Positions 37,469 through 44,684 of a stretch of DNA of 64,000 nucleotides are shown here, piece after piece. The stretch is from an uncultured Candidatus Poseidoniales archaeon. GTDB taxonomy: Archaea > Thermoplasmatota > Poseidoniia > Poseidoniales > Poseidoniaceae. The position numbers and the translations under genes were made by a program. The DNA lies in the NCBI GenBank assembly GCA_000246735.1, contig CM001443.1, forward strand, positions 143,669-207,668. The letters run 5' to 3'. Numbering within the stretch: the stretch's first letter is position 1; each line of letters opens with the position of its first letter. A model generated the notes under the pieces. The model had not been told where the DNA came from. It saw only the letters and a program-made list of their open reading frames with translations, and searched no databases.

Positions 37469-37568
37469 CGAGTTGGGCGACTCGCAAACCCGACTTAAAC
37501 GCGCTGGCGCGACTTCTCAGCGCAAAACAAGCGCGAGATTGACAAAGTTTGACGCTCCAACACGATTT

Positions 37569-40500
37569 ATGCGGCGGGCTATTGTGATGGTATTGCTGCT
37601 TTTCTTGCCGGCAGCAAACGCTTACGTCGCCCCAGAAGATTTGCCCGATGAACCCTCTATGGAGTTCGCCGGAGAGGTTTTACTCACCCTCCATGAAGGT
37701 GTTTGGACCCATGAGGCATGGTCGTCGCTTCATGAAAATGGCGTTCACCCACTACGAGTTGTGTCACCAACTGAATTGGTTGGTTGGCACGATGGTTGGA
37801 TAAAATCACCATCTTACACCGTTTCACCTTCTCCAGAAGCGGTTTGGAAAACGGGGCTTGATGGTCGAAGCCCTGTTGTTGGTGACTTCGTTCGATTGTT
37901 GCTTGAGCCACGACTCCCGGACAGTGCTTACGACGGTTTGCGGGGGCAGCTATCTGCTGTTGGGATCTCGCTTCCAAACCAATACACCCCTTCACCGCTG
38001 GCACCTTCCTATCTTGTTGAATGGCCAGGTGAACTTTCGCTTTCAGATACTCTCGGGTTTGAGGGCATCTTATGGATTGAACCTGTGCTTGAAACTCAAG
38101 CAAGGAACGCACAATCCTCTTCACTCATGCAATCTGGAATCATTTCTGGGCACGCAGCATGGTCCCTCGGACTCAACGGAGCCGGCGTGGTTGTCGGAGC
38201 TGCAGACTCTGGACTCGATGCAGACCATGCATGCTTCCGAAACGCGTCGGTTGCGGGCGCTGTAGGGAGCAGTGGTGAGAACGGGAGTGAACTCGTCGGC
38301 GAAGGTGGACCGGACCATCGAAAGATGGTTTTCTTGAACACGACGATTGACGGCGGAGACACACAAGGGCACTCGGACTATCGACACGGAACACATGTTG
38401 CTGGCACGCTTAGTTGCTACAATGTTGACAGTGAGCGCCAAGGCACTTTTCCAGATAACGGATCGGCTTTGGCTCACGGAACACGGCTCGTGATGCAAGA
38501 CATCGTTTCGAGTGATGGATGGGTGCCGCCTGACGTTGATGCGTTGCTTGTTGAAGCAGGGTTGCATGGCGCCGTCATTCATTCCAACTCATGGGGTGAT
38601 GACACAACCGCATACACAGCGCGAACGTCTGATTTTGATGCGTGGGCCCTTGCTATGCCCTGGTCCCTCTCCTTCATCGCCCCGGGAAACACCGGTTCAG
38701 ACCTGCTCGAGCCTGCAAACGGCAGGAACATTGCCGCCATAGGAGCTTCAGTGAAATCGGCTGAAATGGAACGCTGGAGTGCGTCTTCGACTGGCCCTAC
38801 TGAAGCAGGCACAAATGGAATTTTTGCCCTTGCAGTCGGTACTTCGATTCAGTCTGCGAGGGCAGACGGCATCGCCGACTCTTACAACAGCGGCCTACGA
38901 ACGTCTTCAGGCACCAGCATGGCGACACCTGGGGCGGCTGGTGTGGCCGCAATAATTCAACAGATGGTGGAACAAGGATGGATCTCTGGCAACGAGGTGC
39001 GCACGAATTCATCCATGTCGGCCATCGCCCCCAACTGGAGCGTGGAGGACTATGGCAATGCCTCACTTCTCCTTGCTGAAGGGTTCACGCCCTCGGGACC
39101 AATGCTTCGTGCCTTGCTTGCTCTTTCAACAACGCAGCTTCCTGAAGAGGAGCGCAACGGTGGCCAAGGGAGCCTGGACTTACAGAATGTCCACGATGGA
39201 TGGGGGCAACTCAACCTCTCGGCATTGATTGATTTTGATGCTGTTGCAACTGAACTTGCGGAAGGATCCGCTTCACCTGCAAACGATGTCTGGATTCATG
39301 ATGCGTACCGATTGGCCAACGACGCCCCTGCGCATTGGCTTGAACAACGGCAGGCCGGCCTCGAGCCTCTCGAGAATTTGATTGAAAATCCATGGAACGG
39401 GAGCGGCGCAGCCGGCCCGTTCATGCAAACCGGTGATGTTTGGGTCCAGAAATTCACCCTCAGAGGAGGTGAGGGTTTTGATGCGAGAATGGCGCACCTC
39501 GCAGCACCAGAGCCCACTGCAGTCAATGACTTGCAGTTGGTTGCCCGGCTTTCTGATGGGCGGGTTGCTGTCGATGGAGTGTTCGATAACAGTGGTAACT
39601 CTGTTCTGTATTCTTCTTCGGTTGATTTGGACAACCGTACAACTTTCCCCGCAACAAATGAAACAACGCACGGATTGCGGTTAAGCGCCGATGTGCTGAC
39701 GGGCATCGATTGGATTGAGGTTGAAGTGCGCGCTCGATTTGTTGCCCCCGGCAACATTCAGGGTGGCGTTGGCCTCGATGGAACCCACACCGGATTTTCA
39801 CTCGCAATAAAAGGGGTAGAACGTGACACAGACGACTGGGACGACAAGGACGGCGATGGTGTCGCCAACCTCGATGATGCCTGCCCGAATCAGAACGCAT
39901 TTGGGTGGGACCTTGATGTCGATGGGTGTTTAGACGATTTCGATCAAGACGGGGTCACCGATAACCTCGATGTGTGTCCCGAAGAAAACGCACTCGGGTG
40001 GGACCTTAACGCAGACGGTTGCATCGATGATTCTGACGAAGACGGTGTGCTTGACTCAATTGACCAATGTGAGACGTTCGTCCTATCAGCCTCATGGCCT
40101 GTCGATCAAATGGGATGTAGGCCAGTCGACGTTCGCCCAGAGATTACAATTGAGGAAACTCCTGCCGATGATTTCGTTTGGAACGAGCGCCTCGTTCTTC
40201 GATGGTCTGTGACAGATGATGATGGAGATGGGTATCAAACCGGTGCGGAGGTGTTTGTAATTGACAATCGCTCTGATGGTGGCGGTTACATCATCGCATC
40301 GTGTCAAGCAGCATCGAATGCGACTGCTTCCTTCGAGTGCGAATGGGATGCAAGGCAAGATTTACCCGTGTGGAACATCGAGGAGGCGTGGATCCGCTTG
40401 GACATACATGTCCAAAGTACGAACGCCTCGCCGGAAGCAGACAACAGTCGTGTTGTGCTGCAATCTGAAGAGCGTTTCAAAGGCGAATACATCACTGAAT

Positions 40501-40721
40501 TTGACGCGGGTCCGGGCGATGATCTTGGCGTGGATAAGGAGGAAAAAATCTCCTCTTTGAGAACGATCTTCTGGGGTATTCTCTGCCTTGTGGGTGCGTG
40601 CCTCTTTGTCTACAGATTAGGGCAACAAAGCACGCTACCAAAAGATGCTGTAGCTGTACCAATTCCATTTGCCCAGCAAGGGGAAACTGCCAACCTGGGG
40701 CACGATGTCGAAAACGAGTGA
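37569..40721 (+). CDS. secreted subtilisin-like serine protease (S8) with thrombospondin-type-3-like Ca-binding repeats and C-terminal TM anchor
   Basis: signal MRRAIVMVLLLFLPAANA; catalytic triad blocks VVGAADSGLDADH (Asp), HGTHVAGT (His), GTSMATPGAAG (Ser); C-terminal LRTIFWGILCLVGACLFVY helix; start trimmed to the signal-peptide Met. Confidence 0.85.
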   Translation: MRRAIVMVLLLFLPAANAYVAPEDLPDEPSMEFAGEVLLTLHEGVWTHEAWSSLHENGVHPLRVVSPTELVGWHDGWIKSPSYTVSPSPEAVWKTGLDGRSPVVGDFVRLLLEPRLPDSAYDGLRGQLSAVGISLPNQYTPSPLAPSYLVEWPGELSLSDTLGFEGILWIEPVLETQARNAQSSSLMQSGIISGHAAWSLGLNGAGVVVGAADSGLDADHACFRNASVAGAVGSSGENGSELVGEGGPDHRKMVFLNTTIDGGDTQGHSDYRHGTHVAGTLSCYNVDSERQGTFPDNGSALAHGTRLVMQDIVSSDGWVPPDVDALLVEAGLHGAVIHSNSWGDDTTAYTARTSDFDAWALAMPWSLSFIAPGNTGSDLLEPANGRNIAAIGASVKSAEMERWSASSTGPTEAGTNGIFALAVGTSIQSARADGIADSYNSGLRTSSGTSMATPGAAGVAAIIQQMVEQGWISGNEVRTNSSMSAIAPNWSVEDYGNASLLLAEGFTPSGPMLRALLALSTTQLPEEERNGGQGSLDLQNVHDGWGQLNLSALIDFDAVATELAEGSASPANDVWIHDAYRLANDAPAHWLEQRQAGLEPLENLIENPWNGSGAAGPFMQTGDVWVQKFTLRGGEGFDARMAHLAAPEPTAVNDLQLVARLSDGRVAVDGVFDNSGNSVLYSSSVDLDNRTTFPATNETTHGLRLSADVLTGIDWIEVEVRARFVAPGNIQGGVGLDGTHTGFSLAIKGVERDTDDWDDKDGDGVANLDDACPNQNAFGWDLDVDGCLDDFDQDGVTDNLDVCPEENALGWDLNADGCIDDSDEDGVLDSIDQCETFVLSASWPVDQMGCRPVDVRPEITIEETPADDFVWNERLVLRWSVTDDDGDGYQTGAEVFVIDNRSDGGGYIIASCQAASNATASFECEWDARQDLPVWNIEEAWIRLDIHVQSTNASPEADNSRVVLQSEERFKGEYITEFDAGPGDDLGVDKEEKISSLRTIFWGILCLVGACLFVYRLGQQSTLPKDAVAVPIPFAQQGETANLGHDVENE
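39831..40073 (+). repeat. four tandem thrombospondin-type-3-like Asp-rich calcium-binding repeats inside the S8 protease gene
   Basis: DDWDDKDGDGVANLDDACPNQNAFGWDLDVDGCLDDFDQDGVTDNLDVCPEENALGWDLNADGCIDDSDEDGVLDSIDQC; repeated DxDxDGxxDxxDxCP units. Confidence 0.5.
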
Positions 40722-40834
40722 GATTTGTTCGCAGCATCTCATATCTCGCTTGTTTAGGCCGTTGCTATACAAGGTGAACCTTGAAGGGTGATGGCATGCT
40801 CGGTTGCATGTCCGCAATGCGGACGGTGAACAAA

Positions 40835-41839
40835 ATGAGTGAACGCTTGTATGTTGGAATTGACCTAGGCACCTACCAATCGACTATCTCTTCGAGTGCA
40901 GGCGTTAGCCACACAATCGAAACCGTCGTTGGACGACCAAAAGACCCAGTTGCACGCAACTTCCTCGGTCGCGATGTCTTGTTTGGCAACGAAGCACTCA
41001 AGAACAAACTCGCATGCAACCTTTACCGTCCAATGGCGGCAGGTGTTGCACAAGATGATGAAGCGAACTTGGCAGCAGCCAAGGCCTTTGTTTCCCACCT
41101 GCTCGAGACCGTTGACCCTGAAGAATTCGACGAAGTGTTCGGCGTGATCTGCTCCCCAAGCCACGTTTCATTCACAGACAAGAGCAACCTCGTGGCCACC
41201 CTACGTGGCCAAGTGAACGCCATCATGGTCGTCACAGAACCTTTCGCTACCGCCTACGGAATCGGCGAAATCGCAAGTTCAATTGTTGTCGACATCGGCG
41301 CAGGAACCACCGACATCGCACGAATTTATGGTACATTCCCAACTGATGAAGATCAAGTGACCATCCAAGAAGCCGGCGACTGGCTCGACAACGAACTAAT
41401 GACCTTGATTCAGAAGAAATTCACAGGTGCTCAAATCACAAAGGACATGGTCCGAAAGTGGAAGGAACAAGTCTCCTACGTCGGTGGCGATGTTCGTGAA
41501 GCAACCGTCGAGCTCTCCGTTGAAGGAAAGAAGCAAGTTGTCGATATTGGCGACTTGGTGTCCAAGGCTTGTGAAATGATCGTTCCAAAGATTGGAAATG
41601 CAATCAAGCGAATCGTTGCTGGCGCAGACCCAGAGTATCAACCGGTGCTCCGAAACAACATCATCCTCTCCGGCGGCGGCTCGCTCATCGACGGAATCGC
41701 AGCACGAATGACTGACGAAATCTCAGACATCGGAGACGTCACCGTATGGTGCGTCGAAGACCCAATCAACGCTGTAGCAAACGGTGCTTTGCAACTCGCT
41801 GGCGAAATGCCAGACGACATGTACACCGCCATCAACTGA
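40835..41839 (+). CDS. actin-fold ATPase, MreB/ParM-like (archaeal actin homologue)
   Basis: phosphate-1 YVGIDLGT, connect-1/phosphate-2 VVTEPFATAYGIGE ... VVDIGAGTTDIA, adenosine motif ILSGGGSL; aligns block by block with MreB (IGIDLGT / EPMAAAIGAGL / VDIGGGTT / LTGGGAL); start set at MSERLYV. Confidence 0.75.
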   Translation: MSERLYVGIDLGTYQSTISSSAGVSHTIETVVGRPKDPVARNFLGRDVLFGNEALKNKLACNLYRPMAAGVAQDDEANLAAAKAFVSHLLETVDPEEFDEVFGVICSPSHVSFTDKSNLVATLRGQVNAIMVVTEPFATAYGIGEIASSIVVDIGAGTTDIARIYGTFPTDEDQVTIQEAGDWLDNELMTLIQKKFTGAQITKDMVRKWKEQVSYVGGDVREATVELSVEGKKQVVDIGDLVSKACEMIVPKIGNAIKRIVAGADPEYQPVLRNNIILSGGGSLIDGIAARMTDEISDIGDVTVWCVEDPINAVANGALQLAGEMPDDMYTAIN

Positions 41840-41932
41840 GTACGGTTGTTCTCAAAGGGTACAAAACCACCCGTGGTGGTGCTGTTTTGACTGGGAAAGT
41901 TCAAGTGTGGTTGAGCGTCGATAGACACCTGT

Positions 41933-43198
41933 ATGACCATCGACTCGACTGGGACAAGCGGCATTCGCCGACTCGATGACACATCTGGCGACGAGCGCGC
42001 AGCGCTTGAGGGGATGCTCAAAGGCTACCCTGTCGAGCAACTTGTCGAGGAGGTGTTGATTGCATGGCAAGAACTTGCGGCACGAAACGAAGAGATGGTT
42101 TCGGTCAAACAAAGACTCCGCGTGCTCGAATTAGATCTGGCAGAGCGAGAAGACATGGTTGCGCCTGAAGTTGCTCGCCTGAATCAAGTAGAAGCGAGTT
42201 TGCAAGAAGGTGAAGCAAAAATCATCCACTTGGAACGACTGCTCGGTGACGCTCGTGCTGAACTTGCGAGCCAACAATCATCCATTTCACAAGAAGAACG
42301 CGATGCAATGTCAAATGAGAACTCACAACTTCGTGACCTTTCAATCCAACAGGATGAGGTCATCGCTGAACTTGAGGGGCGCATTGGCCAGATGGTTGAG
42401 GCGCTCGAGCGAGCGGCAGAAGCCGGTCTGACATCTGTCACGGCTGAAGAGGTACGAAGCCTCAAGTCAAAACTCGATGCTGCACTCATGCAAAATGAAG
42501 CAGAACAATCGGCAAACAAGGCGCTGGAGGAGGAACGACAACGGCTCAGAGATATTGCCGACAGGTTGCGCGGCCTTCTTGACGCACGCGACGGTCGACT
42601 CGGTGAATTAGAAGAACAGTTGGAACGGGTGATGCAAGGGCCGCGCTCAGTGTCGGCTGAACACGACTATCTCGTCGAACAAATTGAAGAATTAAAGCGA
42701 CGTTTGCTTGAACGAAACCGTGAGTATGAATCCCTTCGCCGACGTGAAAGACGTCTGCACAATGATGTCTTTGAGCGGGACGAAAGAGTGCAACAAATCA
42801 CACTGACGCTCACAGATATGGAAGCGGCATTGCAAGATCGAACGGCTGAACTTCGCGAATTGGAAGGTCAGCGCGAATCAATGTCTCATGAATTGGATTC
42901 CGTCCGCCGAGGCGAACGCACCAGAGAAGTGGTTGGCCGCGTGTTTGCTGATTCACTCTCACTTGTGCGCACTCATGATGCTCGTGAAGCAAAGCGTGAG
43001 GCTTACAGCAACGAACCTGACAAGACAAGGACCCTTTCCACTCCAAACACGAGTGATATGGCTGGCCTTGCTGAAGGTGGAAAGGTGAGCCTCTCTGTTG
43101 AAGAAACTGATATTACGCCCGGCATGGATGTTGATGGGGTTCGCCCTCCATCACCCGGCGGTACCGGCGATCCTGTGCTCTTCGAAGACGAGGATTGA
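41933..43198 (+). CDS. long coiled-coil protein (421 aa), downstream partner of the actin-like gene
   Basis: continuous heptad-like E/R/L/Q-rich sequence (LRVLELDLAEREDMVAPEVARLNQVEASLQEGEAKIIHLERLL...), acidic disordered tail; 93-bp gap after the actin gene. Confidence 0.6.
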   Translation: MTIDSTGTSGIRRLDDTSGDERAALEGMLKGYPVEQLVEEVLIAWQELAARNEEMVSVKQRLRVLELDLAEREDMVAPEVARLNQVEASLQEGEAKIIHLERLLGDARAELASQQSSISQEERDAMSNENSQLRDLSIQQDEVIAELEGRIGQMVEALERAAEAGLTSVTAEEVRSLKSKLDAALMQNEAEQSANKALEEERQRLRDIADRLRGLLDARDGRLGELEEQLERVMQGPRSVSAEHDYLVEQIEELKRRLLERNREYESLRRRERRLHNDVFERDERVQQITLTLTDMEAALQDRTAELRELEGQRESMSHELDSVRRGERTREVVGRVFADSLSLVRTHDAREAKREAYSNEPDKTRTLSTPNTSDMAGLAEGGKVSLSVEETDITPGMDVDGVRPPSPGGTGDPVLFEDED

Positions 43199-43797
43199 GC
43201 GGAATGGCTGCTTTTAGTGGCCTTGTCGCTATCTCATTAGGACTGGGCCTTGCTGCTGCAAGCGGATTTCGGGTCTTTCTCCCTCCTATGTTGTTGAGCG
43301 GCGCAATCAACGTTGGACTGATCGAAGCCTCCGGCCAACTCGCCTTGCTTGATGGATGGGGTGCGTTTTCTGTTTTGTTGATCGCCGTTGTCCTCGAAAT
43401 TGGCTCTTACCTCATTCCGTGGCTCGACAATCTTCTGGATGTGGTGGCAACCCCCACTGCAGTCCTTGCAGGTGTTGGCCTAATGGGTTCTGTCATCGGC
43501 GCTGAAACCGATTACGACCCCATCGTGCAGTGGGCCATTGCAGCCATTGGTGGGGGCGGGGTCGCTGGAACTGTACAGACTGGAACCGTTGCAACACGCG
43601 CCCTTTCAACCGGCACCACTGGTGGACTTGCTAACCCAATCATTTCCGTGGTTGAGGCGGTGATGGCAATCGTCGTCACCGTTCTTGCCCTTCTGGCCCC
43701 GTTGCTTTGCCTTGCGTTGGTTTGCGTCGGCAGCATCTACGCGTTGCGAGTGATTGGAAGGGTACGAAGCAAACCAAACGCTGCCCCCTTGGCGTAG
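43195..43797 (+). CDS. DUF4126-like polytopic membrane protein, start overlaps the coiled-coil gene stop by 4 bp (ATGA)
   Basis: Gly/Ala-rich TM helices (FSGLVAISLGLGLAAASGF, VAIVVTVLALLAPLLCLALVCVG); translational coupling to the upstream gene. Confidence 0.6.
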   Translation: MSGMAAFSGLVAISLGLGLAAASGFRVFLPPMLLSGAINVGLIEASGQLALLDGWGAFSVLLIAVVLEIGSYLIPWLDNLLDVVATPTAVLAGVGLMGSVIGAETDYDPIVQWAIAAIGGGGVAGTVQTGTVATRALSTGTTGGLANPIISVVEAVMAIVVTVLALLAPLLCLALVCVGSIYALRVIGRVRSKPNAAPLA

Positions 43798-43799
43798 CC

Positions 43800-44684
43800 T
43801 TAGTTGATGGCGTTGACGACTGCGCTGATGCGGGCCCTCAGTTCCTCAAGATTTGCCGCATCTTCAGTGAGTGTGCCGGTTACAATCCAATCTGCCCCCG
43901 CATCTGCGGCTCGCTTGGCTTGTTCTGGGCTTCGAATGCCGCCGCCAATGACGAGCGTGAGCCCATCGACGGTGCGTGCCCGCTCGATTAGTTCGGGATT
44001 GACTTGGTTTGAAGCTCCGCTGCCTGCCTCGAGGTAAAGGAGTTTGAATCCATACATTTGAGCGGTGAGCGCATAAGCATGGACCAAATCATGATCGTTT
44101 GGTTGAATCAATTCTGCCGCACCGACTTCACCTACACGGCCTCCGGGAGCGCAAACGACGTACCCTGTTGGAAGCGCTTCAACGCCGAATTTTTGGAGAT
44201 ACGGAGCACCACGGACTTGTTCACCAACAAGGAATCGGCGTTCGGTTGAATTCATCAGCATCATGAATGTGATAGCATCTGCGGCGGGGGAGAGTGCATG
44301 CGCACCGCCGGGGAACAATACGACCGGAATCTGCCACATTGTCTCATCGCCATCGGGGTCTTGACTTGCGGCGAAGGCTCGAAGTTCAAACGCTTCTTGA
44401 ATCGCAACGCAGGTTGCATGAACCACTTCATCGGGTGTATCTGTGGAGCCACCGATAAAAATCATCGCTGAGCCCGCCTCGATTGCCACCATGGCGCGGT
44501 TCGCTGCAGTGTTTGGATCCTGTTTTGCAGGGTCGATTAAGGTCACGTGGCGGGTTTTTCCATGACAGTTGGTGGTGTATTCGAGCGTGGTTTCTTCACT
44601 GCGTCGCATGGCTATCCCACCTGCCGGTTTTGCGGCCACAGCATAGGGGTTACGCATCATCAGTTCGCATACGCCCGAATCCAT
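43800..44684 (-). CDS. geranylgeranylglyceryl phosphate synthase (GGGPS/PcrB family, archaeal ether-lipid core synthesis)
   Basis: HVTLIDPAKQ, IFIGGSTD, LLYLEAGSGA, LVIGGGIRSPEQAKRAADAGADWIVTG; true start probably the internal MRRSEE Met. Confidence 0.85.
   Translation of the reverse strand: MDSGVCELMMRNPYAVAAKPAGGIAMRRSEETTLEYTTNCHGKTRHVTLIDPAKQDPNTAANRAMVAIEAGSAMIFIGGSTDTPDEVVHATCVAIQEAFELRAFAASQDPDGDETMWQIPVVLFPGGAHALSPAADAITFMMLMNSTERRFLVGEQVRGAPYLQKFGVEALPTGYVVCAPGGRVGEVGAAELIQPNDHDLVHAYALTAQMYGFKLLYLEAGSGASNQVNPELIERARTVDGLTLVIGGGIRSPEQAKRAADAGADWIVTGTLTEDAANLEELRARISAVVNAIN

Follow-up and report, generated by a model that had tools for sequence, protein, structure and literature searches.

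In a 64,000-nucleotide stretch of DNA from an uncultured Candidatus Poseidoniales archaeon (assembly GCA_000246735.1, contig CM001443.1, positions 143,669 to 207,668), hereafter called the window, a gene encoding an actin-like ATPase, here named actin-A, is followed by a gene encoding a long coiled-coil protein. Together, the two genes are a real and previously undescribed actin-plus-partner pair, which extends further than was known to the original prediction, made from the letters of the window and a list of its open reading frames (ORFs). The best explanation overall is probably a cytoskeletal pair of two chromosomal genes that occurs in Poseidoniaceae (MGIIa) and Thalassarchaeaceae (MGIIb), the two families of the order Poseidoniales. 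Each genome examined in the two families keeps a strongly constrained MamK-type actin and a co-conserved orphan coiled-coil protein.

Marine Group II (MGII) archaea are among the commonest archaea in surface seawater; they are uncultured and, to our knowledge, without described cell biology. The statement that no such module is characterised in this group holds for the literature library searched, which links neither MGII nor Poseidoniales to actin, MreB or a cytoskeleton.

The three ORFs predicted to lie on one strand were all found in the ORF listing. They are given here together with the associated elements, in order of position (aa, amino acids; nt, nucleotides).

40774..40785, + strand: conserved box GTGAACCTTGAA upstream of the actin gene, GTGAA-NN-TTCAA with one mismatch; candidate core promoter or operator
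40786..40834, + strand: conserved actin leader, with the hairpin TCCGC-AAT-GCGGA at 40811-40823 and a Shine-Dalgarno-like GGTGA at 40825-40829
40835..41839, + strand: actin-A gene, 334-aa actin-like ATPase of the MamK family
41893..41904, + strand: the box again, GGGAAAGTTCAA, likewise with one mismatch and lying 29-40 nt 5' of the coiled-coil ATG
41933..43198, + strand: gene of the putative coiled-coil partner, 421 aa, orphan family; long helices, four in number, with two conserved breaks, then a disordered acidic tail
42629..42802, + strand: near-invariant core of the coiled-coil protein, GPRSVSAEHDYLVEQIEELKRRLLERNREYESLRRRERRLHNDVFERDER, residues 233-290
43142..43195, + strand: conserved C-terminal peptide of the coiled-coil protein, RPPSPGGTGDPVLFEDED; candidate docking motif
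43204..43797, + strand: DUF4126 membrane protein gene, 197 aa from its ATG; the ORF opens at TTG 43195

The actin ORF opens at either TTG 40781 or ATG 40835 and stops at 41839. The ATG is the likely start because GGTGA precedes it and because the orthologs start at the same Met. The gap to the coiled-coil gene, estimated at about 90 bp, measures 93 nt (41840-41932).

Actin-A and its family

The five blocks that had been quoted as actin signatures (YVGIDLGT, EPFATAYGIG, VVDIGAGTTDIA, GGD and ILSGGGSL) are all present in the 334-aa product, and the rankings by sequence and by fold agree that the first gene encodes an actin-like ATPase of the filament type. In Pfam, the protein matches MreB_Mbl (E = 1e-24, 87.5 bits against a cutoff of 27) and Actin (E = 1.7e-16). 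The top-scoring family is MamK of NCBIfam (NF040964), which covers residues 5-333 of 334 with 338.4 bits and E = 3.9e-101, a score that stays below the curated cutoff of 400. Regarding the other families, BeeR (NF053558) scores 209.3 bits against a cutoff of 530, MreB scores 69.9 against 365.75 (TIGR00904) and 83.1 against 293 (PRK13927), and Salactin scores 33.7 against 400 in NCBIfam (NF053533), with a marginal pass of 29.0 against 27.1 in Pfam (PF25229). The hidden Markov models (HMMs) of ParM and HscA give 18.5 bits (cutoff 417) and 18 bits, respectively. The locus contains neither mreC nor mreD, and the database name "rod shape-determining protein MreB" is over-specific, as only the broad Pfam MreB_Mbl model passes.

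Among proteins of known structure, the top sequence matches are the MamK entries 5jyg (E = 4.6e-64), 5ljv and 5ljw (both ~5e-64), followed by BeeR (8r2n, 4e-37), MreB (~1e-12) and then actins. An AlphaFold 2 (AF2) model of actin-A was built from 29 sequences, with a predicted local distance difference test (pLDDT) score of 80 and a predicted template modelling (pTM) score of 0.81. When this model is compared with the PDB by Foldseek, the MamK filament (5ljv/5ljw) comes first, with template modelling (TM) scores of 0.83-0.86 (0.84-0.86 for 5ljv) and E = 1e-31, again followed by BeeR, MreB and actins. Neither Hsp70 nor a sugar kinase, the matches that had been named as speaking against an actin-like filament, is among the top 50 Foldseek matches; an Hsp70, a sugar kinase or another non-polymerising actin fold is ruled out for actin-A by the sequence and fold rankings.

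In the alignment of the PDB search, E135 and D153 of actin-A correspond to E143 and D161 of MamK, which we take to be its catalytic residues. The predicted model of actin-A thus combines a fold nearest to MamK with the ATPase residues. On its sequence, actin-A belongs to the MamK branch, rather than to the MreB, ParM or crenactin branch, a placement that the original prediction had missed. It is not a formal MamK: the score is below the cutoff, the identity to true MamK is 35%, and no magnetosome genes are nearby, either in the window or in about 130 related loci, where the neighbours are FtsY, prefoldin, L18Ae, an S8 protease, geranylgeranylglyceryl phosphate synthase (GGGPS), an ABC transporter and rhodopsin. 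It is quite likely that actin-A forms filaments, and its fold, family and conserved catalytic residues suggest that it would most likely polymerise with ATP into filaments like those of MamK.

The coiled-coil protein and the conservation of the pair

The second product had been described as essentially one long coiled coil with an acidic tail, and the AF2 model (pLDDT 76) and the composition bear out a nearly all-helical protein with such a tail. The predicted helices span residues 34-117, 120-163, 171-235 and 242-359, with breaks at AGLTSVT and QGPRSVS and a disordered tail at the end. Glu, Leu and Arg make up 15%, 12% and 11% of the protein, which has 94 acidic versus 58 basic residues, and its tail (residues 361-421) is rich in proline and glycine and acidic (14 Asp and Glu versus 4 Lys and Arg). 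Searches of Pfam, NCBIfam and the PDB returned no family, only coiled-coil noise, and the weak matches to Crescentin, JetC and SMC were judged to be noise of this kind. No homology to a solved structure or known fold was found either: the best PDB match of a profile made from 16 orthologs has E = 0.27, and the best Foldseek match of the model has E = 4.7. The concern that the gene might be a fragment of SMC or Rad50 did not materialise, as it is a complete gene; the SMC/Rad50 HMM gives 27.4 bits against a cutoff of 567, and the sequence lacks a Walker A motif (GxxxxGK[ST]).

Two initial homolog searches returned only relatives at least 83% and at least 94% identical and were uninformative on distribution. 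The window itself falls within Poseidoniaceae, with locus L001 99% identical to it. The comparisons reported here draw on 80 species-level loci of MGIIa and on about 40 marine loci of MGIIb, of which about 30 are readable for both genes. The MGIIb loci were found via a metagenome scan with the 129-aa fragment P0301, which is 64% identical to the C-terminus of actin-A, and their assignment rests on the names of the clusters (Candidatus Thalassarchaeum, Thalassarchaeaceae).

In MGIIa, FtsY, prefoldin and L18Ae are encoded on one strand, while the S8 protease, the actin, the coiled-coil protein and a variable slot are on the other, and the order continues past the slot with GGGPS, the ABC transporter and rhodopsin. 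All 80 MGIIa loci have the coiled-coil gene next after the actin gene, at a distance of 91-102 nt; the P0241 lineage shows this order too, and the pair persists although the slot 3' of it turns over freely. The same arrangement, in the same chromosomal neighbourhood, recurs in the ~30 MGIIb loci readable for both genes, with a gap of 105-116 nt in about half of the MGIIb loci. The expectation that the genes of the module would be co-conserved was therefore borne out for the actin and the coiled-coil protein, kept in both families, and failed for the third gene, discussed below.

The identity of actin-A is 86-99% across MGIIa and 70-75% to the 333-aa orthologs of MGIIb, where the coiled-coil ortholog reaches 48-57% and the other neighbours 61% (FtsY), 47% (L18Ae), 37% (protease) and 54% (GGGPS). 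Among the more distant MGIIa loci, median identity is 87% for the actin, 77% for the ABC transporter, 76% for the coiled-coil protein, 72% for GGGPS, 71% for FtsY, 68% for L18Ae, 54% for DUF4126, 45% for the protease and 42% for prefoldin, and the actin is the most conserved gene of the neighbourhood.

The gene directly 5' of the actin throughout the order (37473-40721 in the window) encodes a secreted S8 subtilisin-like protease of ~1050-1080 aa that carries thrombospondin-like acidic repeats and is anchored by a transmembrane segment at its C-terminus. It evolves fast, with 36-50% identity where the actin has 70-87%.

The length of the coiled-coil protein is constant within each family, at 420-426 aa for MGIIa and 383-384 aa for MGIIb (>100 loci). 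The whole proteins are only 55% identical in an order-wide alignment, and a core of ~55 residues is almost invariant across the order: within residues 241-280, 33 of 40 positions are identical in all 19 aligned MGIIa and MGIIb sequences. The best-conserved stretch reads GPRS[VI]SAEHDYLVEQIEELKRRLLERNREYE[SA]LRRRERRLH.DVFERDER, and residues 21-80 and the break AGLTS[VI]TA[ED]EVR are also well conserved. The tail follows an order-wide pattern, PGG[ST]..P, then two to three hydrophobic residues, then an acidic run; the peptide RPPSPGGTGDPVLFEDED is kept in all MGIIa orthologs, its MGIIb counterpart is PGGTAPATMIDIDDDPE, and the motif occurs once in the six-frame translation of the window. The near-invariant core and the kept tail motif point to extensive specific contacts, as this constraint goes far beyond the needs of a generic spacer rod.

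From these features we infer that the coiled-coil protein is most likely a dedicated partner of actin-A. It would be a long dimeric rod that uses the near-invariant middle part to bind or regulate the filament, the conserved C-terminal peptide, acidic and hydrophobic, may dock onto the actin or onto a third component, and the pair would link filaments to a cargo or structure.

Promoter-like boxes, the variable slot and rival explanations

A TATA-like element, gctataca, had been taken as a sign that the three genes share one transcript. The sequence is present (40764-40771), but it lies in a part of the upstream region that is not conserved across 80 orthologous loci, and the conserved block starts directly after it. 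This block is an actin leader of ~65 nt conserved across MGIIa, in which the box GTGAACCTTGAA is at least 90% conserved in the 80 MGIIa loci. The block GGGAAAGTTCAAGTGTGGTTGA is likewise conserved 5' of the coiled-coil gene in 79 MGIIa loci. In every MGIIb locus, the exact box GTGAACCTTCAA stands ~63 nt before the actin ATG and the exact box GTGAAGGTTCAA ~45 nt before the coiled-coil ATG, including the loci with inserted genes. The exact 12-mer is found essentially nowhere else in the MGIIb loci and stays with each gene despite the inserts. Its core, TGAA-N2-TTCA, is palindromic, and the two cores are mutual reverse complements.

A general MGII promoter was considered and set aside, because none of the 46 remaining genes of the window was seen to have the box upstream, and a looser form of it is absent there as well. 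The exact box has no match in the loci of a second actin, actin-B, described later in this report. Within the window, the pattern with one mismatch is no commoner than chance, and the weight of the box therefore rests on its orthologous conservation in otherwise unalignable spacers.

The separate conserved box of each core gene, together with MGIIb inserts of 0.45-3.1 kb between the two genes, speaks against one transcript for all three. The pair more likely consists of two transcription units that carry the same unusual promoter or operator, and the shared GTGAA-NN-TTCAA box suggests that they would probably be switched together. As the box of the coiled-coil gene is not followed by a Shine-Dalgarno sequence, its transcript may be leaderless or nearly so.

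The actin leader contains a hairpin immediately before the actin GGTGA (window 40811-40829), with the sequence TCCGC-AAT-GCGGA here and TCCCC-AA-GGGGA in other clades. RNAalifold, applied to 14 loci, gives a 4-bp stem with one compensatory change, G-C to C-G, in 3 sequences, which is weak evidence; the hairpin may be a translational control element. No credible Rfam family was found in 40600-43900.

The partnership has to be weighed against the view that the two genes are mere neighbours, with actin-A as a filament former and the coiled-coil protein acting independently at the nucleoid, at the envelope or as a scaffold, in a frozen gene order. Several observations count against the pair as we describe it. 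The entire 12-kb neighbourhood, from FtsY to GGGPS, is collinear across the order, in MGIIa and MGIIb, and for this reason the adjacency of actin and coiled coil lends little weight to a functional link. The two genes have separate promoter-like boxes, and the box could simply be an unusual BRE/TATA (transcription factor B recognition element and TATA box) kept by both promoters. The remaining half or so of the MGIIb loci tolerate 0.45-3.1 kb of unrelated genes between the two, whose products are small membrane proteins, a polytopic protein of 392 aa, one cupredoxin-like and one TerB-like protein, and actin-B lacks a long coiled-coil neighbour in the loci examined. In addition, no recognisable actin-, DNA- or membrane-binding domain was found in the coiled-coil protein, the MamK score of actin-A is below the curated cutoff, the position of MamK A278, the site of the non-polymerising mutant A278D, is Pro in actin-A, and both polymerisation and the interaction between the two proteins are inferred. 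On the other side, the same rare 12-nt box stands before both genes and before no other gene seen, the constraint on both genes is unusually strong for this locus, the inserts never part them by more than ~3 kb in the loci seen, and their phyletic range is equal as far as seen. On balance, mere neighbourhood appears rather unlikely, and a partnership between actin-A and the coiled-coil protein is the explanation we consider probable.

The third gene had been regarded as the membrane anchor of a translationally linked three-gene module. Its product is indeed polytopic, DUF4126-like and rich in Gly and Ala, with 5-6 hydrophobic segments and 41% Ala+Gly+Val, and it matches PF13548 over 173 of 175 profile positions (133.9 bits against a cutoff of 27.5, E = 6.7e-39). 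DUF4126 is a family without known function, and the literature search found only two papers that name it, each in passing. The ATGA overlap with the coiled-coil stop does not exist, as the sequence is ...GAG GAT TGA GCGGA ATG...; of the possible start codons, only TTG 43195 shares bases with the stop, and 5 nt separate the stop from the ATG at 43204. With a gap of 93 nt and then one of 5 nt, the translational linkage of the three genes falls away. Co-transcription with the coiled-coil gene, without overlap, is plausible because of the short spacing and of the Shine-Dalgarno-like GAGGA at 43190-43194, within the 3' end of that gene.

A three-part machine, in which DUF4126 would tether the coiled-coil protein to the membrane, gains some credit from this arrangement, which recurs where the gene is present (the ATG is mostly 1-10 nt past the stop in 13 orthologous loci), and from a divergence of DUF4126 that tracks the locus (90, 77, 62 and 55% in successive clades), suggesting vertical descent from an MGIIa ancestor. 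However, DUF4126 occurs in 21 of ~69 MGIIa loci with a readable interval (~30%) and is absent from the other ~48 (~70%) and from all MGIIb loci. The nearest relative of the window, L001, whose actin is 99% identical and whose coiled-coil protein is nearly identical too, has a 478-aa ORF in its place. Elsewhere the MGIIa slot is empty, leaving 2-20 nt before GGGPS, or is occupied by a DCC-like gene of 120 aa, by a peroxiredoxin-like gene in the opposite orientation, by unrelated ORFs of 211, 478 or 572 aa, or by others, and the 54% identity of DUF4126 compares with 87% for the actin and 76% for the coiled-coil protein. A three-part machine is consequently improbable. DUF4126 is facultative and confined to MGIIa, an accessory add-on that the system does not require; it would be a lineage-restricted addition, co-transcribed with the coiled-coil gene in some MGIIa genomes.

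Gene turnover has a hot spot, located 3' of the coiled-coil gene in MGIIa (window 43199-43799 and the matching slot of L001-L080) and between the actin and coiled-coil genes in MGIIb (L098-L138); in both families unrelated small membrane, redox and unknown genes are the fillers.

Another reading of an actin with a neighbouring partner is a ParMRC-like segregation cassette of plasmid, viral or other mobile origin, composed of actin, adaptor and centromere. A weak match of the actin to a PHROG "partition protein" (E = 5.7e-07) is in keeping with it, as is the effect of Salactin, an archaeal MamK relative, on DNA partitioning (PMC10746226). Against it stand the ParM score of 18.5 versus 417 bits, the lack of a direct-repeat array, iterons or a centromere near the genes, a 421-aa coiled coil where a small DNA-binding adaptor would be expected, a fixed position among housekeeping genes in two families, a uniform guanine-cytosine content and the absence of relatives in viral contigs. 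The locus does not qualify as a ParMRC cassette, and this origin is very improbable. The evidence counts only against membership in a mobile ParMRC system, not against a role in chromosome segregation as such. A defence or phage origin was rejected as well, as there is no PADLOC or PHROG membership and no viral contig with relatives; a mobile or defence origin of the pair is unlikely.

As for what the actin-A/coiled-coil pair does, a filament-plus-adaptor positioning system is our best guess, and any specific role in segregation or positioning is speculative.

A second actin, relatives and known systems

A representative search of 1.84 billion proteins found one full-length cluster more than 50% identical to actin-A. 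The next relatives have 42-46% identity and include fusion proteins of 520-1230 aa, one of them named candidate division KSB1. Two frameshifted fragments, P0273 and P0293, led to a paralog that the original prediction had also missed, actin-B, a MamK-like protein of 341 aa, 46-47% identical to actin-A and found order-wide, with thousands of members named Poseidoniaceae and Thalassarchaeaceae. Its gene follows those of a thiolase and of a protein of 336-338 aa that has zinc ribbons at either end, and a convergent unknown gene of 191-211 aa comes next (L091:5858-8026, L092-L096). Actin-B and its zinc-ribbon neighbour may be a second actin-plus-partner pair.

Two actin-B loci differ in detail. 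In one lineage (L090:1501-1782), a 93-aa coiled-coil ORF with a poly-acidic tail (…DDDDEDDIDMENTTTVFVKPKF) comes after the actin, and it is not found in the other actin-B loci examined. In L087:6400-7339, the actin-B gene passes into an ORF whose YVDD motif (…PVYVDDMALIA…) resembles that of reverse transcriptases; the junction is either a retroelement insertion or a chimeric contig.

In a rough neighbour-joining tree, built without support values, actin-A and actin-B are sisters, the KSB1-type fusion group is their joint sister clade, and all lie within a wide radiation of uncharacterised MamK-like proteins. The nearest relatives found for both Poseidoniales actins are bacterial, and a tentative but reasonable reading is that the ancestral gene came from bacteria and was duplicated in the Poseidoniales stem. 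A more far-reaching and tentative possibility is a two-paralog MamK-type cytoskeleton with this history, in which actin-A and the coiled-coil protein would be a new cytomotive machine, owned by one of the most abundant uncultured archaeal groups of the ocean, that positions or segregates a cargo such as the chromosome, the division site or an intracellular structure, and in which the palindromic box would mark a dedicated regulator.

Among characterised systems, the closest actin is MamK, at 35% identity the best PDB match by sequence and by fold. MamK works with MamJ, McaA/B or the Mad coiled coils, that is, acidic and/or coiled-coil partners that join the filaments to their cargo (PMC12748827, PMC13170167), and coiled-coil partners are described for MamK and Mad28 (PMC12748827); the coiled-coil neighbour of actin-A would be an analogue of these. 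The system described here differs in its archaeal host and in the absence of magnetosome genes from the window and the related loci. The coiled-coil protein matched no family in the Pfam, NCBIfam and PDB searches, which did not include a direct comparison with MamJ, Mca or Mad sequences.

MamK-like actins outside magnetotactic bacteria include BeeR of Verrucomicrobiota (PMC11929497), a Saltatorellota protein (bioRxiv 10.1101/817700) and Salactin (PMC10746226). The first two are MamK-related actins that form filaments in non-magnetotactic hosts, and the family is therefore not tied to magnetosomes. The hallmark of BeeR, a disordered N-terminal extension of 30-50 aa, is absent from actin-A, which begins 4 residues before its first strand. 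Unlike actin-A, neither BeeR nor the Saltatorellota protein is mentioned with a conserved coiled-coil neighbour in the consulted portions of the two reports.

Salactin, an actin of the archaeon Halobacterium, is nearest to the MamK family; the protein shows dynamic instability and has been tied to DNA partitioning (PMC10746226). Its similarity to actin-A is very weak. It is of the Methanotecta lineage, and its long, charged N-terminal tail has no counterpart in actin-A. The system of crenactin and its arcadins offers the same concept, an archaeal actin next to lineage-specific partners, and arcadin-2 binds crenactin via a C-terminal peptide (PMC5173319), an analogue of the C-terminal peptide of the coiled-coil protein. 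Crenactin is of the eukaryotic-actin branch and lies outside the best 60 PDB sequence matches and the top 50 fold matches of actin-A. Between the arcadins and the coiled-coil protein no sequence relation was seen, and no direct comparison was made.

The KSB1-type fusions (P0243-P0256), at 42-46% identity the nearest relatives of actin-A and actin-B outside Poseidoniales, are proteins in which the actin domain is joined to an N-terminal coiled coil and to a long disordered region, so that the theme of a coiled coil with a MamK-like actin recurs; their N-terminal parts show no similarity to the coiled-coil protein.

In the light of these results, the MamK-like actins form a broad family that extends to archaea and is mostly unconnected with magnetosomes. 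The results also correct routine annotations in which the actins are named "MreB" and the coiled-coil protein "SbcCD/SMC ATPase". They supply concrete targets for heterologous expression, cryo-electron microscopy and in-situ cryo-electron tomography, namely the actin-A pair and actin-B with its different putative partner.

The sole KSB1 locus examined (L081:8001-14791, candidate division KSB1) encodes a 707-aa protein in which a coiled coil, a disordered region and a MamK-like actin are fused and, beside it, a second actin of 345 aa, three Roadblock/LC7 proteins, one of them with DUF4388, and a small Ras/Arf-like GTPase. This looks like a polarity module in the style of MglA/MglB beside actins.

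Some database entries carry the MGII genes under other labels. L047 (DLTU01000102.1), labelled "Candidatus Microthrix sp. UBA7828", contains the MGIIa protease, actin (88% identity), coiled-coil protein and GGGPS and is evidently mis-binned. P0049 and P0123 are MGII actin and coiled-coil sequences in "contigs" of 140 Mb and 104 Mb, which suggests archaeal contamination of very large, probably eukaryotic assemblies.

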